DNA of 64,000 nt from an uncultured Hormoscilla sp. (GTDB taxonomy: Bacteria > Cyanobacteriota > Cyanobacteriia > Cyanobacteriales > Desertifilaceae): the NCBI GenBank assembly GCA_963921275.4, contig OZ001293.3, forward strand, positions 5,344,001-5,408,000. The letters run 5' to 3'. Below are positions 17,235-62,868 of the stretch, in pieces; the stretch's first letter is position 1; every line of letters starts with the position of its first letter. Made by a program: the position numbers and the translations under genes. The notes beneath the pieces are model-generated. The model saw only the letters and a list, made by a program, of their open reading frames with translations. It did no database searches and was not told the DNA's origin.

Positions 17235-18280
17235 CTCCCCAGCCCGAACTTTAAAGGGTCCGGCTACATGTATATAGCCCGCCTGCGCCGGCTATATACA
17301 TGTATCATCGATGCACCCCCAGCCCGAACCTTAAAGGGTCCGTGCGATTCGTTCTAGCCTAACGTGATCAAACACGGAACGCTAGCCCGGTTTCATTAGC
17401 CGGGAACTCTGACCGCATGGGGGTTAAATTCCCCTCCCCCCAGGTACGGGGGTGACACCGGTCCTCGGTGCTACGAAGCGACATCATCGTGGTGCTAAGC
17501 GAGGACTCAAATGTAGGATAACTGGCAGCCTAAGCCGGTGACGCCGCTAGGAAAGATATCCAAGGTTAGAGCAGGCAAACATGTGCAAGCCTCGTTATAA
17601 GGAACCAGCGAAATAAGGCTATATGCGCTGGCCTAAAAAGGAAATGGTAGCTAGTATTAGTTTTAGACTCTGGCTAATATAGTACTCAAATAGCTCCCGG
17701 GGTATAGTGTGGACCTAAAGGTATCGCGAAATGTTGTTAGGGAACGAAGTAACCTCTCGTGTGCTGTCCATCAGGACAAGTTAGATGTTAAGCGCAAGCC
17801 ACGGGGGGAGGGATGGCCCAAGAAGCGAATGCCCGGGGTAATTCCTGGGATAACATCTACAGTAATGTAGATGATGCTGGGTAGCCAGCGCTGACGTGGG
17901 TCGGTGATACTAGGAAGCTGCTGGAATGAGTAATCCTAAAAAGCCACGGAACTAATCCGAAACGCAAGTGGAGGATAAGGTATGGATAACTGGTAAAACT
18001 GACTTGAAAATGGTGATACTAACGGTTATCAGAACAACCACTCGCTAAACCAGGAAAGGGAAGAAAAGACAGGCGGCAAGGGCTAACGGAAGTAATTCCT
18101 ATTAAGTCTACCTATGAAAAGGGCCTAGTACCCAGTAGCCGGATGCGGTGAAAATCGCAAGTCCGGTTTCTCAAGGGAGGGTCGGGAAGCGATTCCCGGC
18201 TCGACCCCATCCGGCTACATGAACAAAGCCCGCCTGCGCCGGCTATATACATGTATCATTGAGCCCTCCCCAGCCCGAAC
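17235..18280. repeat. Tandem ~80-nt palindromic repeat; the second unit is interrupted by intron copy 1
   Basis: CCCAGCCCGAAC..TAAAGGGTCCGGCTACATG..AGCCCGCCTGCGCCGGCT units on both sides of the intron; related copy at 51103-51153. Confidence 0.8.
17342..18212 (+). mobile_element. ORF-less group II intron, copy 1 (871 nt)
   Basis: 5' GTGCG; domain V AGCCGGATGCGGTGAAAATCGCAAGTCCGGTT (18137-18168); domain VI with GCGA tetraloop and bulged A at 18204; no RT ORF. Confidence 0.93.
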
Positions 18281-20069: not shown

Positions 20070-21716
20070 AGCTGTCCGTTAATTTTTGCTAAAGTTCGGG
20101 CTTTTTGCGCTTGTAGCTTTTCCCAAGCAGCCTCTTTACCAGGTGGTGGCGGCATCTTGGCAATTTTGGCTATGAGATCGCGATTGCGTTCTTCCCAATA
20201 CTGCCTGATTTCCTCAGCGTACTTCAAGACCATCTCATACTCAGCCTCCACTTCCTCGCGATTATTCTCAATGTATGACAAAGCTACGTTGATTTCGGAT
20301 GGGGTCGAGCCGGGAATCGCTTCCCGACCCTCCCTTGAGGAACCGGACTTGCGATTTTCACCGCATCCGGCTACTGGGTACTAGGCCCTTTTCATAGGTA
20401 GACTTAATAGGAATTACTTCCGTTAGCCCTTGCCGCCTGTCTTTTCTTCCCTTTCCTGGTTTAGCGAGTGGTTGTTCTGATAACCGTTAGTATCACCATT
20501 TTCAAGTCAGTTTTACCAGTTATCCATACCTTATCCTCCACTTGCGTTTCGGATTAGTTCCGTGGCTTTTTAGGATTACTCATTCCAGCAGCTTCCTAGT
20601 ATCACCGACCCACGTCAGCGCTGGCTACCCAGCATCATCTACATTACTGTAGATGTTATCCCAGGAATTACCCCGGGCATTCGCTTCTTGGGCCATCCCT
20701 CCCCCCGTGGCTTGCGCTTAACATCTAACTTGTCCTGATGGACAGCACACGAGAGGTTACTTCGTTCCCTAACAACATTTCGCGATACCTTTAGGTCCAC
20801 ACTATACCCCGGGAGCTATTTGAGTACTATATTAGCCAGAGTCTAAAACTAATACTAGCTACCATTTCCTTTTTAGGCCAGCGCATATAGCCTTATTTCG
20901 CTGGTTCCTTATAACGAGGCTTGCACATGTTTGCCTGCTCTAACCTTGGATATCTTTCCTAGCGGCGTCACCGGCTTAGGCTGCCAGTTATCCTACATTT
21001 GAGTCCTCGCTTAGCACCACGATGATGTCGCTTCGTAGCACCGAGGACCGGTGTCACCCCCGTACCTGGGGGGAGGGGAATTTAACCCCCATGCGGTCAG
21101 AGTTCCCGGCTAATGAAACCGGGCTAGCGTTCCGTGTTTGACCACGTTAGGCTAGAACGAATCGCACAGACTCTGTCAGGTTGAGAAGATTGCGAATAAA
21201 CTTGGGTGAATATTCTGCTTTCACGTAGTCCATCACGTCGTAGAGGGTTATGCGCTTGCCGTTGATCGAGAGTCCTCTTTCCGTGCGGACGATCGCCGCT
21301 GGTTTGGCATCATGCATGTTTATTTTATTGTGAGCCTTCAGCCCTTGCAGCCTTTTCCAAGCCGCCTCTTGACCAGGTGGTGGCGGCATCTTGGCAATTT
21401 TTACTAAGAAATTGCGATCGCGTTTTTCCCAATTCTGCCTAATTTCCTCAGCCTCCTTCCATAGCATCTCATACTCAGCCTCGACGGCCTCACGATTATC
21501 CTCAATGTATGACAAAGCCGCGTTCATTTCCGACTCTGTCAGCCAGAGAAGATCGATAATCATCTGGGGTGAATAATCATCTTTCAAGTAGTCCATCACG
21601 TCGTACAGGGTAATGCCCTTACCTGCGATCGTGAGTCCTATTTCCGTGCGGACGATCGCCGCCTGCTGGGAATCATTCATGTCTGTCATTTCCTGCAATT
21701 TTCTCTCTTTATCCAT
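20066..21716 (-). CDS. Tandem DUF433 antitoxin-like protein split by intron copy 2 (exons 21716-21168 and 20296-20066)
   Basis: Two IVRTE.GL.I.GK.ITLYDVMDY repeats; removing 20297-21167 gives LTES|EINVALSYIE, matching repeat 1 LTESEMNAALSYIE; start may be at 21680. Confidence 0.85.
20297..21167 (-). mobile_element. ORF-less group II intron, copy 2 (871 nt), sense orientation in the DUF433 gene
   Basis: Reverse complement of copy 1; GTGCG at 21167; its removal restores the host reading frame. Confidence 0.93.
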
Positions 21717-25062: not shown

Positions 25063-27237
25063 ATGATTTCTGACCCAGACAAGCTAGCAGAACAGATAGC
25101 AGAACAGGCAGCACGCTATAACAAAATCAGTGATATTTGGGAGGATGTTACAGAAAAATGGAAACGGATATTGCACCAACCAATTGACAAAGAAACTGCA
25201 AAATCAGTAGTCAAGCAGTTGTATCAGTTAGCGGAACGCACGCTGCTAACTTTCGAGTTCGTCCCTAGCCCGATGGCGGCAATAAATTTAGCCAATAAAC
25301 TAGATATGGGAGCTTCTCTCAGGGATTGTCTGGAGTTGAACTGGTTGGTATTAAAAGCATCTTTGCATGATAATTTAATAAAAGAAATGGGATATGTTAT
25401 GTCAGATTTTATGGATTATCTGCTCGAAGACGATCTGTGGAGTTTTCTCAGTCCAGACCTGGTTATTAATGTAGGTAGCGGTCATCTGCACGATTATCTG
25501 TGGGCTTCTTTAAGAGAAGTTTTGGGAGAGGATCTGGGAGATTATCAATATTGGGTGCCTGAAGAAATGCTAAACTTCGCTGCGTGTTTAGACGCAGTGG
25601 TTACTACTGATGTTATTCCCTACGATCGCGATAAATCTCAACTTTGGGTAGCTTTGTTCGAGAACTTGAGTTGGTGCTTGCTTTACGAAAAAGTTTGTAT
25701 TACAGTTTGTTCAGGAAACAAGTAGAACATTTTTGTGCTAAACTAGAGCTATACTCAATGCAGACCAAATTCAGCTATGGGACGTTACTCTCTGGACCTG
25801 AGACAAAAAGTAGTCACTGCTTATCAATTGGGCAAAGGCTCGATTCGGCAACTCGCCGAGCAGTTTATGCTCAGTCCTGCTACTGTTCATAGTTATATAA
25901 AACAAGATCGAGAAACGCAAGATATAACCCCTAAAAAACCCGGTCCCAAACGTCCGGGCAAGCTAGAAGCCGATCGAGACTTGATCGTGAAGATGGTAAA
26001 AGATTACCCAGATTGTCCGGTGAGGCAGTATCGGGAACATCTCCGGCGGGAGCAGGATGTTTATGTCAGTGTAGGGGGGATGTGTGAGTTCCTAAAAAAA
26101 GAAGGCTTAACCCTTAAAAAAAAACTTACCGGGCAGAAAAGGTAGCAACGGAAGCAGGTCAACAGCAGCGAGTTGATTACCGAGAGCGGGTTCGAGATGT
26201 CCCACAGGGAAAATTGATATTTATTGATGAGGCAGCTTTCTGGATAGGGATGAGTCGCGATCTGGCCAGGAGTGAAAAAGGTAAAAAGGCATTCTATTTA
26301 AGACCATTTTATCAGGGGAGTAAAATGACCTTAATCGGAGCAATAATTCTTGAAGGAGTTGTGGCTAAAAAAGCAATTAAAGGCTCTATGAAAGGTAAGG
26401 ATTTTAAGGATTTTATTGAAGATGACCTGGTTCCGAAGCTGAATCCAGGGGATGTGATAGTTATGGATAACCTTAATATCCATAAAATGGAAGGGATCGA
26501 AGAACTGATAGTCGCTACGGGAGCAAGAGTAGAATATTTACCACCCTACTCACCAGACTTCAACCCTATTGAGATGTTGTGGTCAACGGTTAAGTCACTG
26601 GTCAGAATGTTCTCAACACGAGCAATGGAGGCGCTAGAACAGTTAATTGAACTTGCTCTGATGCTGATTGGAACAAATACGTTTAAGAACTGGTTTACTA
26701 AATGCTGTTATTGTACTAATTAAATAGCGAACCTGCTGTATCTGCTTCGATGTCTCCGGAGAGCGCTCTTACGCACTACTCCGGAGACATCGATCGCCCC
26801 ATCCACTTCGAGTTTACCGAGAGACTTCACGCGGAACTAGTAAAACCCGCGATGGAGTATAACGACGGCTTTAAGGTGTACTCCCATGAAGGCTTTTGGT
26901 TACCAGCAATATACGCAACAGTTCCCCCTCAAACTTGACGTTCTGAATGGTTATTATCAGAGGAAAACGCCGAACTCCGACGAATGCTAATTCAGCAAAT
27001 TAGCTAGGAAAAAATTTGCCAAGAGTTGCAAGCAGTGTCAATTGATTATTGGCAGGACTACAAACTTATGAAAATTGACGCAGATGTCGATGAAGAACAG
27101 ATATATTTGTTAAAAATGAATTGTCCGAGTACCGGAAAAATTCATGCCTTGCGCGTTCCGCCTGACTTGCAAACTGCCAGAGAAGCGATCGGGTGGATAA
27201 ATTGGGGCATCCAGAAAAAATTGCCATGCAGATTTAA
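25063..27237 (+). pseudogene. DUF6745-type protein interrupted by IS630 and by a hairpin element
   Basis: Removing both inserts restores VCIICDRP; tail LKMNCPSTGKIHALRVPP..WINWGI; additional stops. Confidence 0.75.
25703..26738 (+). mobile_element. IS630-family element (ORFs 25777-26145 and 26214-26723; A-rich frameshift site near 26116)
   Basis: YSLDLRQKVV HTH; FIDE, VMDN and LPPYSPDFNPIE; TA duplication at 25701 and 26739. Confidence 0.92.
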
Positions 27238-31522: not shown

Positions 31523-34007
31523 ACCAACTGCGGGCAGCTTTGACAGCAGGAACAGGCGGTACTGTTACCTTGCGCAACTACCGCAAAGATGGTAGCATGT
31601 TCTGGAACAACTTAAGTGTTTCGCCCATTTATGACGAGGAGGGAAATCTCACCCATTACATTGGCATTCAAACAGATATCACGGAACGCAAGGAAGCAGA
31701 AGAAAAGCTGCAGGCGACAACATCGCGTCTGACAGCATTGATGGAAAATCTCCAACTTGGCGTTCTGGTAAAGGATGAGTCAGGTAAAATTGTCCTCACC
31801 AATCAAGCCTTTTGCGACCTATTTCAAATTACCGCGACGCCACAGGCCATGAGGGGAGCGTATTTCTCATAATTTGCCCTAAATTATCAACATTTGTTTG
31901 CTAATGGAGCAAAATTTATGCAGCGCCATAATAAAATTATTCAGGTCAAACAAGTAGTGATGAGTGAAGAACTGCAAATGGCTTCAGGACGGACCCTGGA
32001 ACAGGATTATCCGCTGATTTTTGTGGATGTAAATTACTCCGGACACCTGTGGATGTATCGGGAAATCAGCGATCGCAAACAGACGGAGTCGGCATTGCGG
32101 GAAAGCCAGGCGCGATGGTACAAACTGATTAATAACACCGCTGACGGCATTCTGGTGGTGAACCGGGAGGGAATAATTCGCTTCGTCAACCCAGCGGCAG
32201 AAATTCTCTTCGGTTTCCTGGCGAAAGAACTTCTGGGAGAATCATTTGGCATTCCCTTAGAAACCATAGATCGATGGCGAGATTTCCATCATGCAATCAG
32301 ACTGCGGCTGGATCACTTTAGACATGCGGGTCGTGGCAATTAACTGGGAGAGCGAACCAGCTTATCTCGCTTCTTTGCGGGATATTAGCGATCGCAAGCA
32401 AGCGGAAAAGGAACTGGAACAGGCTAAGGACCAACTCCAGGCTGTCTTAGATGCCGTGCCCGGCCTCGTTTCCTGGATTAGTTGTCCAAACAAAGAAGAT
32501 TTAGAGCGCCTGGAATACCTTGGGGTTAACCAACATTTAGCCACTAGCTTCAACCTGGCACCAGAGGCATTTGTCGGTCAAAAGATTTGCTTTCTGAAGA
32601 ACCGCACTCAGTTTCCCAAATTGATTCGCCAGTTTTTTGAGTCTGGAGATGAGCATATCTCCCAAGAAGTTACTCTATTTGTAGATGGTAAGCTTCGCAA
32701 CTATTTAATTGTGGCTCAGAAGTATCATCAAGGTAAGGCAGCCGTATCCGTAGGGATTGATATTACTGGGCGCAAACAAATAGAATTAGAACTGACTCGG
32801 TCGAAACAGTGGCTGCAATATTTACTCGCTTGTAGCCCTGCCGCGATCTACAGTCGCCAGCCGACTGGCAATTACCGCACTAATTTCATCAGCGAGAATG
32901 TAGCATCTATGTTAGGGTATGAAGCAGCAGAATTCATGTTAGACAACAGCTTCAGGCTCGATCGCATTCACCATGACGATCTAGAACATATTTTAACCAA
33001 TTTATCAAGGGCATTGCCACGAGGTAATCATAGCCACGAATATCGTTTCCAGCATCAGAATGGCAGCTATCGGTGGCTGTACGAATAATTTAAGCTAGTC
33101 CGGGACACTGAGGGAAAGCAGAGAGAAATAATTGGTTACTGGGCAGACCGAAGAATTGCTCAAAGCTTCCCTAGAAGAGAAAGAAACCCTGCTCAAAGAG
33201 ATTCACTACCGTGTCAAAAATAACCTCCAGATTATCTCCAGCCTACTGCGGTTGAAATACCGAAAAATTCAGGACCAAGAAGCTCTAAAAGCCTTTACAG
33301 AGAGCCAGAACCGGATGCAAGTAATGGTCCTAGTTCACGAGTAGCTCTACCAATCTGATAATCTAGCAGACATTAACTTCCCAGAATATATCCAAATTTT
33401 GGTAGAGAAACTGTTCCGCTCCTACGGCGCGCGTGGTTTAACCTTTAAGGCAATACTCCGGACAGTTTTTAGACCCTATTTCGACTACAACACAAGGGTT
33501 GCAGCCAAAAGCGCCTTATTTTTTTCAATGTCTGCCCCAGGGCTAACTTGCCTAAAATTGCTCTATCGAGCAAAGGCTGACGCTGCGATGCGCGAGGGGT
33601 AGTGCGAGTAGCGCGCCCCGAGTGCATCGCAAGGCTTGCAGCTACGTACAGCCAAAACGGTCCGGACTATTGTTAAGGTAAACATAGAAAAAATATCACT
33701 GGCAATTGATACCGCCATTCCCTGTGGCTTGATCGTCAACGAGCTAGTTTCCAACTCCCTCAAGTACGCCTTCCCAGAGGGTCGCAGCGGGTGGATTTGC
33801 ATTAGCCTGACCAACAGTGACTCGAATGGGTATATCCTCAGCATCAACGATAACGGGGTGGGCATACCAGCAGAGTTCGATTGGACTCAGACCAAATCTC
33901 TGGGCTTGCAGCTGGTGCGCAAACTGACCAACCAGCTAGAAGGTGAGATTTCACTCGCTCGCAGCCAGGGGACTGAATTTAGACTGATATTTAGTAAACT
34001 AACATAG
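31523..34007 (+). pseudogene. Multi-PAS HisKA_2-type histidine kinase remnant
   Basis: [35 protein letters not shown]; several stops and a MITE insertion. Confidence 0.82.
33451..33672. mobile_element. 222-bp MITE with 19-bp imperfect TIRs and a 6-bp target duplication
   Basis: CAATACTCCGGACAGTTTT / AAAACGGTCCGGACTATTG; TTAAGG on both sides; removal restores GLTFKVNIEK. Confidence 0.85.
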
Positions 34008-46151: not shown

Positions 46152-47534
46152 GGTTCTTCTCAATCTAGTATGCTAAAATAGGTCTTGAAGTTGATGCGCC
46201 CGCTCAACGGGAGATCCTGAAAACCGGAAAACCTTTTCCAGCTTGACATTCAGCAACTAGCTAGTTGTGGTATAATATAGATGCGCGAAAAAACAGGGAG
46301 AATTTATAAGATGCCACGCTCGAATCTAAAAATACTAACAACATTGTTAAACATTCCAGAGGTGAAAGTTGTCGGGTATACTGAGACTCATTTAACAGAA
46401 GTGATGATGACAATTGAGGCAGAAAAAAAAGAAGCAATTTGCCCTAGATGTCATCAAAAAAGTCTTGCATCAGAACCATAATTATTTAATTAAGGATTTG
46501 CCCTGGGGAGAAAAAAAAGTTTTTCTCAAAATCAATCGCCGTGCGCTCGCTGTTTGAAACCGTGAGAAATTGTCATATGTAGAAGGTCGGCGTAAATGTA
46601 CGAAGAGACTGGGAGAACAAGTGGTTCGAGAAGTATTAAATGGGGATATTATTAATGTAGCGCTTCGGTATGACTTAAAAGAATCTGAGGTTCAACAAAT
46701 GCTATCTGGACAGGTGAAAATTGAACCGAACTAAAAAAGCTAGGGATCGATGAAATTGCATTGGTAAAAGGACAAGGTAATTATTTAGCTGTTTTAGCCG
46801 TGTCTCCTGGGAGCGCTATTCGCACTACCCAGGAGACGTGGATGTTGAGAATAGCAAACTTCTGGAAATAGTGAAGTCTCGGCGACAAGAAGATCTGCGA
46901 GAAGTCTTGCTATCATGGGGTCCCGAGGTGTTGAATGGTATTGAAGAAGTGAGTATGTGGAAACCGTATCAAAGTTTAGTGGAAGAATTGATGCCTAATG
47001 CTGAAGTTATAGCTGACCGTGTGACTAAGCAAGTAAATGAAGAGCTAGATAATTGTCGAAAACAAATCAAGAATGAAGCTAAAAAACTTAAGAGAAAGTC
47101 AGAAAAAGAAGAGATATCGTCGGTATTAAATAAAAGGAAAGCTCATAAAAAATCAAGAAAAATTTAAAGAAGAACAAGAAATTAAGCTGAAATAAATTCA
47201 AGAAAAAATTCCTAAATTGGGAAAAATGCACCGAGGAGCAGCTACATATATGAGAGGTCCGAAAAGTCGGAAAATCCTACCTTACAAATCCTCGATTGGA
47301 TCCTAGAGGCAAGAGAGGATTTTCCCGTGTGAAGACAATTATTCGATGGTTCGGAGAAATTGTAGGTGATTTTGAATCGGGGACAACTCAAGGGACTGTG
47401 TCAGGAATAAATAACCGTCTCAAGTTAATCAAACGTAAGGGATATGGATTCAGAAATCTGGAAAATTTTCGCTTGCGTAGTCTCCTTTCCTGGTGCTTTT
47501 AGCCTCAATCTAGCATACTAGATTGAGAAGAGCC
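46152..47534 (+). mobile_element. ISL3-family element, decayed
   Basis: 24-bp TIRs GG(T/C)TCTTCTCAATCTAGTATGCTA; GIDEIALVKG; GINNRLKLIKRKGYGFRN. Confidence 0.9.
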
Positions 47535-49139: not shown

Positions 49140-49416
49140 ACTTGATGGTATAAATTTATTTTATATTATGTTCGCTTGCAAATCCAATGAATGTTATAAA
49201 TAGGCTATAACGGGTGCGATCTTAATACCATTTTGAAAAAAAATTGACAATTGTTTAAGCCTTATCATATTAGTCGGTTTTAACCGACTTTAGCTTTTAG
49301 CCGGGGGTTTGAACCCTCCGTGTCTCGTGGGTAGTGCGAGTACGATGTCCCCGGGGTAGTGCGACTAGCGCTCCCCGGGGACATCGAGCGACCACGAGAC
49401 ACGAAAGGCGGGCTAA

Positions 49417-56536: not shown

Positions 56537-58130
56537 GGTGCATCTCACTTTTGCATCTGTGACCTATCATAGACTTTTATCTATGATAAAATTTATTGGC
56601 TTTTGCCAAGGATGCATCTTACTTTTGCAAAAACATCATGTAGAAAGGGCCCCATTTATATAAGCACAACGTCAAGAAAGTATTTGGGGAAGGTTGGATA
56701 TATTCCATTGAGCCCCTGAAATTTTTATCCGTGTTCCCATACGTTTAATCACTGATTCTATTGAACCAGAACCGATAAGACATCTCCAAAAATAAAACCC
56801 TTGTCAGCTCTGGGTTTTAAGCTCTACCTCCCATGCTCACATATGTTACTCAAACGGCAGAATCTGGGTTTGATATATTTCCTGTTAATAAAGAGCTCCA
56901 AAGGTGGTACTGGTTAATCTCAAGTTTTTCAGAGCTATCAACAGATTCTAATACTTCTAAAATTCGCGCAACCAACCCAACTTTTGTCGAAATTACCGAT
57001 TCATATTTATCAATATTTAACCGAAATCGCTCGCTGGCAACCCGGAAAAATTTTACCAATGACTTGTTCAACGAAAACGGGAAGAAAAATCTCTATTTTC
57101 TTCTTTTTGTTTAGCTGTTAATTCCTGTTTTTTCGGTTGTTTTTATTTGAGGTTCTCCAATATAGGCTTATCTCTGCAAAAATTTGATCTGGATCGAAAA
57201 CGACGCTCGCAAGATTTATATCGCTTGCCGAGCCTCTTTCTCCAGATACAACATCGACAATATCTGCACGCTACCAGGTAAAACAATTAATTGATTTTTC
57301 AAAGTATTTCTTCTTACCTGAGTAAAACTTTTTCTGCTCTTCATAGTCCTTAGGTCTTGGTATGGCTTGCGCTATCGACTATCAACTCATATTCTGTGTT
57401 TGGATAAATATTCTTCATCTTCTCCATTTTTTTTGTTCAAGTAAACGGCAAAAGATCTTGCCAATAATTAAAAATATCATTAGCTTTCACGCAAAAAGTA
57501 TACCCAATACTTGGAATGTTAATCCTTGACACATCAAAGTTTATTTGATCTTCTACTAATAATTTAGGTTTCGCCCCCACGAGGTATCAATCTAGTTTTG
57601 TGTTCTTCCACCTTTTCTTTATGATTTTTATCCAACAGCAATTGCAATAAGTTGTATTAAGTTTTCATAGCTGATACCGATGAGCCGTTTTGCTTCTTTA
57701 GGCTTGGCTTGCAAATATGTCCAGGTAATACTCGTCACAAAATTAAATTTTCAAATCTTATTATAGCATAAATTTCTATTTTGGAGATGTCTAGAAAACT
57801 CACCTAACTGATAATACTGATAATCAATTATTCGAGAACGATGTTTTTCCAAATAATTACATAAATTATGAGTTTCTTTTTGATCCGATTGAATAATAGT
57901 ATTGTTTCATCAACTTTTCCCGACCAGAGGAGATTTTTAGCTTTTTTTATCCTCGTAGCCTCCTACTTTATGAAGATTTTCCTTGAGATGATACCAATCT
58001 AATATTTCTCTTCTCTTGCCTGGTTCGCCTATCTGTTTAAATAATTTCCAAATTCCTGCATGTCCATCTCCTAGACAATAAAATGGAGCCAAAAGTTTTT
58101 GACAATTTACCCAGTTGGCTTGAAAAAATG
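56537..58130 (-). mobile_element. ISKra4-family transposase C-terminal remnant, interrupted by an IS5-like element
   Basis: EILDWYHLKENL; IGSGSIES..KISGAQWN; end sequence GGGTGCATCTCAC. Confidence 0.65.
56778..57792 (-). mobile_element. IS5-family (ISL2-like) element, decayed
   Basis: TIRs AGACATCTCCAAAA / TTTTGGAGATGTCT; VKFFRVASERFRL; YSGKKK. Confidence 0.75.
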
Positions 58131-58311
58131 CTCCGCAATATATCCCACTGACTGCTTTATAATCTTTCCATTCACAAGCTTGTCCTTTTTCTTCTGTTCT
58201 AATCCTTGCTTTTCCTCCAGGCGACTTCTTTCACTCCCAATTTCGAGAAACTGACGGTGACAATCTTTACAAATCAAATAAGGTTTACCTAGTCTATGAC
58301 CATTTTTATTA

Positions 58312-59135
58312 GGGCGTGTCATCAGTTAGAGAAAGAGATGAACCGAAGAGAGGGAAACAGAGAGAAAAATGCGCAGAGAAAGCACTTCTTCGATGACCAG
58401 TGGGAAAAAATCAAGGATTTCCTACCGGGGAGAGACGGCCATGTAGGAGGAACGGCCAAAAATAATCGACTGTTTGTTGAAGCAGTGTCGTATCGGTATA
58501 GAGCGGGAATCCCGCTCTCGAGACCTACCCGAAAGGTTTGGAGACTAAAGAAGTAGTACATACGAGATTTAGCCGATGGAACATTCATGTTCTGTGTAGG
58601 AAAGGATCTTCTTTGTGTTGGCGTAAGACGCCGATAAGGAGTATGGGATGATTGATTCGACAATATTTTGAATGAGAGAATTTTGAATGAGAGAATTTTG
58701 AATGAGAGAATTGCTTAAGGAAGTCGAGGAGGATTAAGTACTTTGATTCATGCCACTTGTGACCCTCTTATTAATCTCACAGGCTTCTTTTTGACGAGAG
58801 GACAAGCCCACGTTCTTGATGGCGCAGATGTCCTCCTTGAAAAGCTTGAAGCATAGGCAAGAAGAGCGGATAAAGCTTATGATGCTGATGAGCGGGTCCG
58901 CCAAAAACTCCAAGCTCAAGGTTGCACAGCGGTCATTCCCTCCAAGGTGAAGTGCCAAGTTCCTTATCAGAAGCGACAAGCACCTCTACAAGGCTCGCCA
59001 TCTGCGCCAAAAACTTTTTTGCCAAACTCGAGCAGTATCGCGCTATTGCTACCCGTTATGATCAAACCGCTCGTAACTTTTTAGGGGCGATTTATCTGGC
59101 TGCTTCTGTCGTCTGGCTTAACTGATGACACACCC
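58312..59135 (+). mobile_element. IS5-family (IS427-like) element, decayed, inserted in a zinc-ribbon transposase fragment
   Basis: TIRs GGG(C/T)GTGTCATCAGTTA with TA duplication; NNRLFVEAV, YRAIATRYD; removal restores MKCPRCGSEKINKNGH. Confidence 0.85.
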
Positions 59136-59559
59136 TAATTTTTTCAGAACCACATCGGGGACATTTCATTTTCAACTCCTTTAACTAAAGTATTCGCCTT
59201 ACACTCCATTATAGCACTAATTGTGACTAATGGGTAAAAGTCCCTCATCTTAACTATAAATTCTCCCTGAAAAATTGCAGATTATAATAATATGCATTAA
59301 CCTATCATCCCAAAAATGTGCAACGCCTCACAACGATACCACAAATAACTTTTTCTCACGTTCGGCTGCAAAAGCCAGACAAGCTTTGATATCTTCTGAG
59401 CTGGAGAGTACGAAGTTCTATGAAAATAGGACCTATCCTAAAAGCTGAACCCCTTGCTCCTAATTAGGAGCCCGCGAATTGCTGCATATAGGTCTCTCGG
59501 GCCCAAACCCGCTTCCATGCTTGAGCAGTTCCCCAAAGAACTTCGCACTGTCCAGTTCT

Positions 59560-59714
59560 GAGGTAAGTTCAGAAAAATCTTCCAGAATTTCCACTTCGGT
59601 CATGCCACCTGCCAGATATTCCAAAATGTCGTATACGGTGATTCGCATCCCCCGAATACAGAGCTTTCCACTGCGTTTTCCAGGCTCAATTGTGATAATG
59701 TCTTGGTATTCCAT
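59560..59714 (-). pseudogene. DUF433 protein truncated by an IS end
   Basis: ITIEPGKRSGKLCIRGMRITVYDIL, then CCTCAGAACTGGACA resembling the IS end at 61861. Confidence 0.7.
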
Positions 59715-59870
59715 TAGATATTACACTGCATTTTGCGCTCTAATACTATTTCCTCATCTGTCAAGGGTGTCAGGTCAAAATGGACGAGCCACCTCAATAT
59801 CTGTCGCCCAACCTCCAGTTGCTCTGGGGTGGGCAGCTTATCAAAAGAATTAAGAATTTCTTCAGCTAAA

Positions 59871-60230
59871 GCGGTGTCTCCCGAGAGATCGATGTCTCCC
59901 GAGAGATCGATCTCTCCTGGGGCGAGGTTTCTCCTGGTCGCTCGATGTCCTCCGAGGCGAGGTGTCTCCTGGGGCGAGGTATGTCTCTGGAGCTCGATGT
60001 CTCCACCAGAGCGCTAATCGCACTACTCCGGAGACATCGTAATCGCACAAAAGGGGACATACCTCGCGCCTTACGCACTACCCAGGAGAAACCTCGCGCC
60101 TTACGCTCAAAAGGGAGGACATCGTAACCGCACTACCCAGGAGAAACCTCGCGCCTTACGCACTACCCAGGAGACATCGTATTCGCACTATTTCGGAGAC
60201 ATCATATTCGCACAAAAGGGGAGACACCGC
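59871..60230. mobile_element. Eight nested ~45-nt hairpin elements
   Basis: Seven stacked left arms, one complete core, seven right arms in mirror order; each right arm is complementary to its own left arm. Confidence 0.85.
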
Positions 60231-60293
60231 GCAGTCATTTGTTTTACGGTTGGAACCATCCTTATGGGTATTCTATCACTAAAACTATGACAT

Positions 60294-61130
60294 TTACCTT
60301 TTGTAGGCAACCTGAAAAGCTGACAGATATGAGAGTTGGATACTATTGCCGCAGTTCTTCTCTAGGGTTTCCCTCAAACCGGCAAACAAGGAATCACGCT
60401 GCTGGGACTCTAGGTTGATGTAGGGGGAGTAGGTACTCAACAGCGCCAGATAATCATCGATGCTATAGGTCACTTCACAGGGTAAATCTTCGGACTGGAA
60501 GTCCTGGAAATAACCTGAGTCCTTTACCTTCTGGACAAACTGGTTCAGGTTGGCTAACTGAGTTTTTCTGTCTTCATATCGTCCCAGAGATGGAGCATGG
60601 AGCTGATAGACTTCATCCAACATTTGGTAAACTTCATAGGGGGGCTGGGCTGACGTGTTCCAGAGTAAAATTAGAGCACCTCTTGCTTTTAAGGCCGCAG
60701 TAACTTTGGGATACCCTCTGACAGGGGCAACCCAATGAAAAGCAGTTGCTGCTAGCACCCCATGGAATCTCTCTGGCTCTAGCTCCCACTCCTCAAAGGC
60801 GGTATTCTTAATCTCGACATTGGCATACTGGGCCGAGTTTTGTCGCGCTAGCTGACAAGCTGACTCACTTGGTTCTAGACAGACCATTTGAAAGCCTAAT
60901 TGCCCAAAGGCTTCCGTTGCATTCCCGGGACCGCATCCTATTTCCAAAATGTTGGCTTCCTCTGGGAGTTGCGCTAAGGACACTGCCCGTGAGATCATAG
61001 TTTTCGGATAGCGTGGTCTGGTCCTGTTGTAGGCAGAAGCTACGGCACTGTACCAGCTTTTTATTTGTTCTGAGGTCCAGGTATCCGCTACTTCCCTGTA
61101 CCAGTTTTCAGCTTGTGACGAATCTTTCAT
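60294..61130 (-). CDS. Class I SAM-dependent methyltransferase
   Basis: ILEIGCGPG, AATAFHW. Confidence 0.88.
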   Translation of the reverse strand: MKDSSQAENWYREVADTWTSEQIKSWYSAVASAYNRTRPRYPKTMISRAVSLAQLPEEANILEIGCGPGNATEAFGQLGFQMVCLEPSESACQLARQNSAQYANVEIKNTAFEEWELEPERFHGVLAATAFHWVAPVRGYPKVTAALKARGALILLWNTSAQPPYEVYQMLDEVYQLHAPSLGRYEDRKTQLANLNQFVQKVKDSGYFQDFQSEDLPCEVTYSIDDYLALLSTYSPYINLESQQRDSLFAGLRETLEKNCGNSIQLSYLSAFQVAYKR

Positions 61131-61418
61131 AAATGGTTGCTTGTGAATGGTAACTACTCGTTGGCAGTCTCGGGCTGGGAACGATGATTGAGAGGCAGAG
61201 CCTCCAGTTTATGATAGCTAGGAAATGATTATACCTTGATGTCTCTGGGGTAGTGCGAATAGCGCGTCCCCTCTGGGAGACATCGAAGTTGGCAGTCTCG
61301 GGCTGGGAACGATTATTTGACCAGTCGCGTTTGAAACCTTGGTGGTAAACTGCCAGATAGCTCTCCCAGCGCAGGATTGGCATAATTTTCTACCTCCATC
61401 AACTATTAAAACAGCCTC

Positions 61419-61861
61419 TTACGTTGGTAGCCCATACAACCAGTTAGTTCGATATAAAGTCAGCACCCATTTATGATGACTCAGACCTAGAAAATTTACT
61501 ATAACTTTAGCATGAGACGATTCGTCAATCTTGAATGATTTAAAAAACATTTGCAGACGTTTATAATTAGAATCAATTTGAGCTTTTCCAGAAAAAGCTG
61601 TCGCAATTTGAACCAAATTTACAGTTTTTACAGCAAATAAAGCTATCAAAAAATTAGACAAGAAGTTAATTCTTGCGGCATGCCATTGAAAAATTTATTT
61701 TAATTCTTTTGAGAGTAAATCAATATGACTCATAATTACAGGTTATGTATGAGGACTTATTCTATCCTAGCATAAGTCACGTAGTAATGTCAAGGTTTTA
61801 CTTGATGTCGCTTGAAATCATTTATTGGTATGGGTTGAGCGCGTTTTGTCCTGTACTGAGG
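61419..61861 (-). mobile_element. IS4-family transposase 5' remnant
   Basis: KTVNLVQIATAFSG..SNYKRLQ..WVLTLYRTNW; end sequence CCTCAGTACAGGAC. Confidence 0.7.
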
Positions 61862-61997
61862 TTACAGCTATACCGCAATAGGCTTCAATTTGCGTTTTTC
61901 TTTCTGCCAAGCTCTAACTTCCAAAACCTTACCCTGTCTTCGTTTAGGCGACAAAATTGCTGCAGCAAAAACCGCAAGTCTATCCCTTTGGGAGTAT

Positions 61998-62868
61998 GTG
62001 CGATTCGTTCTAGCCTAACGTGGTCAAACACGGAACGCTAGCCCGGTTTCATTAGCCGGGAACTCTGACCGCATGGGGGTTAAATTCCCCTCCCCCCAGG
62101 TACGGGGGTGACACCGGTCCTCGGTGCTACGAAGCGACATCATCGTGGTGCTAAGCGAGGACTCAAATGTAGGATAACTGGCAGCCTAAGCCGGTGACGC
62201 CGCTAGGAAAGATATCCAAGGTTAGAGCAGGCAAACATGTGCAAGCCTCGTTATAAGGAACCAGCGAAATAAGGCTATATGCGCTGGCCTAAAAAGGAAA
62301 TGGTAGCTAGTATTAGTTTTAGACTCTGGCTAATATAGTACTCAAATAGCTCCCGGGGTATAGTGTGGACCTAAAGGTATCGCGAAATGTTGTTAGGGAA
62401 CGAAGTAACCTCTCGTGTGCTGTCCATCAGGACAAGTTAGATGTTAAGCGCAAGCCACGGGGGGAGGGATGGCCCAAGAAGCGAATGCCCGGGGTAATTC
62501 CTGGGATAACATCTACAGTAATGTAGATGATGCTGGGTAGCCAGCGCTGACGTGGGTCGGTGATACTAGGAAGCTGCTGGAATGAGTAATCCTAAAAAGC
62601 CACGGAACTAATCCGAAACGCAAGTGGAGGATAAGGTATGGATAACTGGTAAAACTGACTTGAAAATGGTGATACTAACGGTTATCAGAACAACCACTCG
62701 CTAAACCAGGAAAGGGAAGAAAAGACAGGCGGCAAGGGCTAACGGAAGTAATTCCTATTAAGTCTACCTATGAAAAGGGCCTAGTACCCAGTAGCCGGAT
62801 GCGGTGAAAATCGCAAGTCCGGTTCCTCAAGGGAGGGTCGGGAAGCGATTCCCGGCTCGACCCCATCC
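61998..62868 (+). mobile_element. ORF-less group II intron, copy 3 (871 nt)
   Basis: Same sequence as copies 1 and 2, GTGCG...CCCCATCC. Confidence 0.93.

Follow-up and report, generated by a model that had tools for sequence, protein, structure and literature searches.

SDR1–SDR8 of Nostoc punctiforme and its relatives were reportedly described by Elhai and co-workers in 2008, and two of these families, SDR1 and SDR4, are said to nest in their own copies. SDR elements are very small (21–27 nt), non-coding and structured, dispersed in the genome and limited to a lineage; they carry compensatory changes and insert site-specifically, also in genes. The Rickettsia palindromic elements are hairpin repeats of about 100–150 nt which enter essential genes in frame, and they are not known to nest in themselves. 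How repeats of less than 50 nt move in bacteria has been an open question since the Nostoc SDRs. In the available part of one source (PMC4390886), SDR5 inserts precisely between bases 3 and 4 of HIP1. A further small system is GC42 of yeast mitochondrial DNA, for which the available part of the source (PMC4478555) gives a palindromic mobile unit of about 42 nt with changed bases beside the insertion, read as co-conversion; the units merge and shuffle, and an intron-encoded reverse transcriptase (RT) or endonuclease is proposed there and is unproven.

Here, we report the analysis of a locus of an uncultured Hormoscilla sp. at 59871–60230 of the window (the whole stretch of DNA that was analysed, 64,000 nucleotides), in which eight copies of a 45-nt hairpin unit lie one inside the other (Table 1). 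The unit resembles the Nostoc SDRs in being very short, present in many copies, without coding capacity and restricted to a lineage, and in its compensatory structure, empty alleles and self-nesting. There are nevertheless several differences. The first is the length of 45 nt as opposed to 21–27 nt; the second is the depth of eight, together with the probable transfer of nests as blocks. The covariance model of the unit matched none of 150 other cyanobacterial genomes, and the comparison with SDR1–SDR8 was made by description rather than by sequence. The Nostoc SDRs would thus appear to be the closest known system, and since the unit lies outside their length range and was compared with them by description, we do not class it among them. 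The initial annotation of this DNA had recognised no described system with self-nesting of this depth; self-nesting in itself is reportedly described already for Nostoc SDR1 and SDR4, but neither this family nor its depth was found reported. With the Rickettsia palindromic elements the unit shares the hairpin repeat, and it differs from them in its 45 nt and its self-nesting. A third difference from the SDRs concerns the target, which is C|GAnGnnWCATY for the unit and HIP1 for SDR5 in the part of PMC4390886 referred to above. As judged from the available parts of PMC3116915 and PMC3733652, REP and REPIN sequences associated with RAYT proteins differ from the unit in that its GTAG is internal and not a terminal tag. 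In addition, the mobile unit is one 45-nt hairpin rather than an inverted REP doublet, no RAYT gene is flanked by it, it often lies inside open reading frames (ORFs), and in the genome that carries the nest (G000) it invades RAYT-associated REPs. The size of the unit, the changes of flanking bases and the proposed use of an RT are reminiscent of GC42, as presented in the same part of PMC4478555. No description of the Hormoscilla 45-nt family or of a depth of eight was found by a literature search of papers outside subscription, and the parts of PMC6520454 on repeats and transposition do not mention the family.

Table 1. Parts of the nest and its neighbours, in window coordinates.
Feature	Position	Strand	Remarks
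Layer 1 (outermost unit), left arm and truncated loop	59871–59889	+	Pairs 11/11 with 60205–60230
Layer 2, left arm and scar	59890–59907	+	Near-copy of that of layer 1
Layer 3, left arm	59908–59922	+	
Layer 4, left arm and TCGCT scar	59923–59942	+	Has an intact sibling at the centre of the nest C1:3,299,979–3,300,155
Layer 5, left arm	59943–59957	+	Intact sibling, likewise after TCGCT, near C1:3,722,670
Layer 6, left arm	59958–59974	+	
Layer 7, left arm and GAGCT scar	59975–59994	+	Intact sibling near C1:4,847,380
Complete core unit, loop intact	59995–60039	-	41.4 bits, E 2.9e-8
Layer 7, right loop and arm	60040–60066	+	
Layer 6, right loop and arm	60067–60096	+	
Layer 5, right loop and arm	60097–60124	+	
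Layer 4, right loop and arm	60125–60151	+	
Layer 3, right loop and arm	60152–60179	+	
Layer 2, right loop and arm	60180–60204	+	
Layer 1, right loop and arm	60205–60230	+	
Chromosomal flank with distal part of the target motif (TCATT, +6 to +10)	60231–60239	+	Retained in the empty site of the sisters
DUF433 gene, neighbour outside the element	59460–59714	-	PF04255, E 1.9e-17
Class I SAM methyltransferase gene, neighbour outside the element	60294–61130	-	PF13649, E 2.4e-12

The nest occupies the intergenic gap from the methyltransferase gene to the DUF433 gene and is the deepest clean nesting record in the genome. Its seven left halves, core and seven right halves were all recovered where the initial annotation had placed them, the layers measuring 45, 43, 43, 47, 43, 47 and 47 nt, which with the 45-nt core gives 360 nt. 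Over the terminal 11 nt, arms taken in mirror order are complementary at 11, 9, 10, 11, 11, 10, 11 and 10 positions, or 83 of 88 in total compared with 65 for the parallel order, and 4 of the 40,320 orderings score at least 83; layers 4 and 6, whose right-arm ends are identical, are interchangeable in this test. The whole region folds into one long hairpin (-104.2 kcal/mol, z = -13.1), which was equalled by none of 100 shuffles. The mirror-order pairing was thus as first described. On the minus strand, which folds better, the core unit consists of a stem, a TA/T bulge, a GTGC/GCGC stem and an NNNTA loop. In the sister genomes G001, G002 and G004 the whole site is empty and reads ...TCAGCTAAA|GCAGTCATTT, with TAAA|GCAGTC at the junction, so that the nest is a clean 360-nt insertion; the comparison comprises these three sisters, as the contig of G003 stops short of the site. 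G004 carries two copies of the empty-site flank at a distance of about 1.8 kb, a local duplication in that genome (L015, G004:C29:77,500–82,000). The 360-nt nest itself, in its intergenic gap, probably has no function. An Rfam scan of 58000–62000 gave no match up to E = 1, and a promoter and terminator scan gave results at chance level only. The mirror architecture and the lack of Rfam matches speak against a CRISPR array or known structured RNA. RNA run X10 contributed three short pieces, one of them ending at 59871. Near the nest, at 58296–58663 and 61419–61661, short frames resemble transposase remnants, which we take to be IS5-like and IS4-like.

The same unit is found throughout the genome. 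G000 (7.03 Mb, with 4,754 HIP1 sites) carries 458 units in 354 nests, and 104 of the units (23%) are inner layers; nests with unusual loops escape the parser, and its counts of depth are therefore minimum values. Tallies of empty sites and of equal or unequal depth between orthologues include mis-paired paralogues and were kept out of the counts. Exact matches to the loop pattern number 268, 32, 87, 82 and 131 in five Hormoscilla genomes (32 being the count for G001), with none in nine other members of the taxonomic family and two at most in 17 more distant genomes. In a species collection, 73 of the 75 matches listed belong to Hormoscilla, and the other two are without the stem. Likewise, none of 47 matches among those listed, comprising 45 from viruses and these two from non-Hormoscilla genomes, has the stem, and a metagenome search with a 36-nt pattern returned no match. 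Among the genomes searched, the family was found only in the genus Hormoscilla. The 14-bp arms of the unit are variable and change in concert: among 60 distinct units, with 90.2% of cells paired, 131 changes affect both sides, a number reached by none of 500 shuffles, and slid controls gave 29–50; the loop columns are fixed by the search pattern and so are uninformative in this test. Of 278 sequences, 269 fold better as the minus strand under RNA parameters and 243 under DNA parameters, owing to the formation of the inner GTGC/GCGC stem with a T-G pair and the NNNTA loop. A compensatory variant of this stem, GCAC/GTAC, is present in 19 of 256 units, and the outer-stem mismatches (52 A-C and 39 G-T on the plus strand) favour the minus strand weakly. 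The initial annotation had likened this strand, which reads GTAG and then a hairpin, to REP substrates; GTAG precedes the 4-bp inner stem there and is internal to the larger hairpin.

As many as 81 of the 354 nests lie within long open frames, not all of which are real genes, and 14 lie within the stems of RAYT-associated REPs. Since 45 nt preserves the reading frame, the insertion process adds peptide to genes. The proposal that a tiny non-coding element repeatedly inserts into its own loop agrees with the empty sites of the sisters, with hosts that are intact in one genome and filled in another, and with the share of inner units given above; the unit is almost certainly a mobile self-nesting element. 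Five further units lie in the window, at 26746–26794, 33584–33631, 46796–46843, 49341–49388 and 61235–61287. The unit at 33584 is situated in a multi-copy repeat, that at 49341 is a two-layer nest within a RAYT-associated REP, and that at 61235 has a mini-hairpin in its arm.

To derive the rules of insertion, the whole of G000 was compared to 2.38 Mb from G002 and G004, most of it selected around units. Clean orthologous empty flanks were found for 19 of 188 solo units of G000 and for 16 of 94 units of the relatives, giving 34 pairs without one duplicate. The net gain is +45 in 27 of these, 44 in two, 41 in two, and 46, 47 and 51 in one each. On the plus strand, a filled site has between its flanks a 43-nt core with a dinucleotide on either side, and the empty site has one dinucleotide instead. 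The left junction dinucleotide is mostly TT and the right one mostly G plus a further base; either of them, or neither, matches the empty allele. The donor is therefore 47 nt which overlap a 2-nt target core, no target duplication is made, and the bases of the junction dinucleotides can derive from donor or target. A miniature element (MITE) of a DDE transposon is rejected because of this lack of duplication in the net-45 pairs and of any partner among 37 ORFs flanked by units. One of these ORFs is IS5-like, with units at a distance rather than at its ends.

Position 0 is G in most empty sites. Among 24 net-45 pairs of the T-N type, the base at +1 differs from the empty allele in 11, and in 10 of these 11 it is complementary to the N of the element. 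After removal of four pairs hosted in paralogous REPs and of one duplicate site, 6 of 19 independent pairs show a change at +1, five of them complementary to N, compared with a flank mismatch of about 6% (p = 0.0014), and the mutual information of N and +1 has z = 14.6. Guide-type pairing of the element arm or loop with the target was also considered and is rejected, as only N/+1 is strong; all others (z <=5.9) are confounded by related copies. The target motif is one-sided and spaced, C|GAnGnnWCATY. In 105 solo T-N units, C occupies -1 in 70, G +3 in 60, A or T +6 in 77, A +8 in 78, T +9 in 71 and C or T +10 in 78, and 106 held-out units have A at +8 in 60 and T at +9 in 65, with 64% of them above the 90th background percentile. 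The empty site of the nest locus itself scores at the 97.5th percentile of the genome background.

Within its own loop, the unit has two entry points, GG|GA|GCGC and directly before TA. The former, which is used by the CGAGG-type layers of the nest, obeys the ordinary rule, as in the orthologous pair of L045 and G000, in which GA is replaced by a 47-nt unit. Entry before TA brings a net gain of 43; the host loses part of GAGCGC, and 5-nt scars recur (TCGCT, GAGCT and TCGGG). In the pair of L224 and G000, for example, GAGCGC has become TCGGG plus the unit, the host being intact in G000. Junctions inside the nest read CATCG or CATCA and then TA in 4 of 4 cases, and CCTCG and then CGCC in 3 of 3. 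Of 117 distinct nest junctions from G000 and its relatives, 67 have CATCG, which stands before TA in 64, and 14 have CCTCG, which stands before CGC in all 14 but before CGCC in only four. The junction rule of the initial annotation thus stands for insertion before TA, and its second half, insertion before CGCC, becomes insertion before CGC. Peeling of the layers had been expected to regenerate full-length units, and the peeled hosts of the nest are 1–2 nt short in the left loop; since orthologous pairs show the same scar, short hosts do not speak against insertion. The class of scar tracks the arm (p = 0.0005) and the loop (p = 0.004) of the host and not the inner arm (p = 0.53). Pre-existing 42-nt hosts are rejected as the source of the scars, as there are two matches and neither is of a scar type. 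The motif scores highest on the unit's own arms (99.3–99.9th percentile for two of the three common units), yet right-arm insertions were seen in 4 of 292 units as opposed to 81 scored as inner layers, and the loop sites score at about the 90–96th percentile. Since the arms score best and are rarely hit while the loop sites score moderately, structure or homology must add to the preference for the loop. Two of the 292 units are inner units opposite to their host in orientation (C1 at about 1,929,890 and 3,389,472, counted on the minus strand), and at L210 one nest has its inner loop inverted between G000 and a relative.

The Hormoscilla family is young enough to offer dozens of filled and empty pairs, from which testable rules follow: the donor has 47 nt and overlaps the target by 2 nt, the target motif is spaced and lies on one side, and the loop is entered at two points. 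Such junction rules frame the choice among an intron RT, an HUH nuclease and a serine recombinase. We tentatively favour copying of the unit by a borrowed group II intron RT into a 2-nt staggered break, which we consider plausible and stop short of calling probable. The travelling form would be the better-folding minus strand (5' GATG...CATCGAA 3'). A putative nuclease would cut C|NN|, with the motif G..WCATY 3–10 nt to one side; the left end of the break would prime copying from the AA end of the hairpin, and the GA end of the copy would anneal to the opposite overhang. Either junction dinucleotide could then be donor- or target-derived, with the net gain constant at 45. Priming from one 2-nt overhang and annealing to the other would account for the constant +45, the mixed junction bases, the preference for G and the N/+1 pairing. 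A whole nest, being one long hairpin with the ends of a single unit, would travel likewise.

RTs are in ample supply in G000, which has 93 RVT_1 matches and 348 domain V motif matches (about 350 group II introns), and RT-maturase-HNH proteins of about 595 aa with intact frames, predicted to be of the active type, are present in G000 and G001. More than 100 group II intron matches were found in each of G002, G003 and G004, and 0–5 in nine family relatives. According to the available part of 10.1101/2022.03.14.484287, group II RTs can anneal at 3' overhangs through short microhomologies, down to 1 bp, and they also switch templates. Against the RT route, G001 has its exact loop motifs yet two group II intron and three RT matches, and G028, of another family, has more than 100 introns and no loop motif. 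The scar class of before-TA insertions, which follows the host and not the inner unit, also argues against a tag carried by the donor. In the main intron families, the exon consensus differs from the target motif of the hairpin. An intron endonuclease is not supported as the cutter, as the 3' exons are without C at +9/+10; the peak in motif score found 8 nt past the ends of introns is a by-product of the fixed AY end and not evidence. Unit flanks were found at none of 17 Y1, 12 GIY-YIG and 10 resolvase loci, and an HNH search gave matches dominated by intron proteins. None of the 37 flanked ORFs, judged by eye from the N-terminal sequence, is an evident dedicated mobiliser, and they read as housekeeping genes or chance neighbours.

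A bolder version of the RT route is that the 45-nt hairpin RNA is a near-minimal retroelement which hijacks intron RTs at 2-nt staggered breaks in a defined motif and copies nests as compound units; we regard this as doubtful. If true, nests would grow, shuffle and carry other mini-elements. Such a self-assembling selfish DNA would rank one level below introns that lack ORFs, and the mechanism behind SDR-type repeats would be supplied. As a tool, an enzyme able to insert a short hairpin cargo at a loosely defined motif, and to do so without duplication, would be of interest.

An HUH nuclease of the RAYT or IS200 type could instead peel off the minus strand as a single-stranded dumbbell circle and paste it 3' of the target C. 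Such peel-and-paste of a single-stranded circle is the way of REPINs and IS608. The lack of target duplication fits this explanation. So does the better-folding strand, in which GTAG sits at the foot of the inner stem and almost all target information is found 5' of the insertion point. Joining of the ends would give C-GAA-G, which is a very stable DNA miniloop, and the base that would form its middle is the freer one (T 81, C 10, A 7 and G 7). The nests in stems of RAYT-associated REPs point in the same direction, and Y1 genes are present in every member of the genus searched. However, a RAYT, which the initial annotation had put forward as a candidate mobiliser, is not borne out: the 17 Y1 loci are from six genomes (15 of the 25 Y1 matches of one search were taken as loci), and the flanks read hold other repeats or none, the two Y1 genes of G000 each lying beside repeats other than the unit. 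In addition, donor bases at 0 and +1, as well as target dinucleotides kept on the left, are not known products of peel-and-paste, and the family member G005 has seven Y1 matches and no unit. We therefore consider mobilisation by an HUH nuclease unlikely.

Movement may also proceed without a dedicated enzyme, with the repair or replication polymerases of the host switching templates onto folded hairpins where breaks occur, and with ectopic conversion among the hundreds of similar units shifting loops, scars and blocks. The dependence of the scar class on the host would be explained in this way, adjacent arms of the nest look homogenised (59906 and 60107, compared with run X5 below), several unrelated mini-hairpins also occupy the loop of the unit, and the flanked ORFs include no autonomous partner. 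Nevertheless, a specific cutter is implied by the spaced motif and by a gain that stays at +45 across unrelated sites, and the family is limited to one genus; host repair alone is rather improbable. Integration of a 45-nt circle, made of the 43-nt core and a 2-nt coupling sequence, could also be the work of an IS607-like serine recombinase or of some other recombinase whose overlap is 2 nt. The net gain of 45 as 43 + 2, the G at position 0, and the left-kept and right-kept target dinucleotides expected from a 2-nt staggered exchange all agree with it, and five 221-aa open frames with a resolvase domain in G000 are candidates. However, duplex DNA of 45 bp is too stiff for a circle, junctions that have donor bases on both sides would need extra repair, and the target motif is one-sided; among the 10 resolvase loci only L170 lies near unit-like arms, and its sister copies L167 and L174 are without such a cluster. 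This explanation is likewise rather improbable.

For the nest itself, the question is whether the layers arrived one by one. Depth counts in G000 (278, 58, 13, 3 and 1) are geometric (p = 0.216), and the geometric model predicts 0.008 nests of depth 8. Layers 2–4 recur as a block, with the loop of layer 4 intact and within another outer unit, at C1:3,299,979–3,300,155, a site that is empty in G003, and the nest near C1:3,722,670 has at its centre an intact layer 5 together with the TCGCT tag. A four-layer nest near C1:5,203,500 agrees with the right halves of layers 7 and 6 to within 4 mismatches in 57 nt; the versions of that nest in G002 and G003 have an odd ACCAG core arm, as does the nest at 59871–60230. 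Being common to G002 and G003, the C1:5,203,500 nest predates the species split. As we read the sequences, this nest minus its middle layer on both sides would be almost exactly layer 7 plus the core, and layers 6–8 were probably available elsewhere as a block. The nest was likely built in about four events rather than eight, from single units and pre-nested blocks, a course reconstructed from siblings and undated, and we judge block assembly to be probable. The initial notion that the youngest insertion lies in the centre thus holds as an order of arrival, but not as a series of single insertions in time, as layers 2–4 existed as a block and layers 6–8 resemble an older nest. The value of the nest accordingly lies also in its evidence for nests moving as blocks. 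A second very deep nest is located at C1 about 3,722,470–3,722,780 (minus strand), with eight right-half matches and more right than left halves; this surplus suggests tandem duplication of right-half blocks. No orthologous flank of this nest (C1 at about 3,722,600) was found among four relatives.

Contigs from runs X2 and X3 tile 59700–60400 in overlapping pieces with zero letter differences and cross the nest at flank-like depth, and the pieces shown from runs X1 and X4 agree likewise with the assembly; all four runs belong to a single study, may have supplied the data for the assembly, and give no single contig piece that covers the whole nest. Run X5, from a separate study, has pieces across 59843–59899, 59964–60021, 60062–60147 and 60196–60600, and the site is filled in this second strain. 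It carries the usual allele at two positions of the nest, C at 59906 and A at 60107. These differences point to later local change in the nest, and the left arm of layer 2 was probably homogenised locally to that of layer 1. That the nest is an assembly artefact, a product of tandem slippage or a single inverted duplication can hardly be right, since the absence of one bridging contig, the possible identity of the four runs with the assembly source and the 18 nt that layers 1 and 2 have in common on the left are set against exact tiling at flank-like depth, a filled second strain, left and right halves that differ in period and carry different loop halves, a mirror order with p ~1e-4 and intact siblings of the layers elsewhere in the genome.

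Other small hairpins enter or replace the loop of the unit in orthologous pairs. One such invader is the GTTCCCAGG...GGGAAC REP, which is present upstream of the Y1 genes in L258 and L262, and another is a GCGCTGCGCGCACG-type repeat. Three copies of an 834-nt ORF-less group II intron are located in unit loops (C1 at about 949,413, 2,518,774 and 1,123,598), directly after GTAGTGCG on the better-folding strand of the unit. The group II intron load of G000 is extreme, with two ORF-less families of about 830–870 nt that have 153 and 92 identical 5' ends and a clear IBS-like exon consensus. In the window, 5' ends of the largest ORF-less family are situated at 17342, 21167 (minus strand) and 61998–62850, and domain V matches at 20373 (minus strand) and 62792. 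Contig C3 of G000, of 31.4 kb, has 17.6% G+C compared with 47% for the genome and is probably foreign to the bin.
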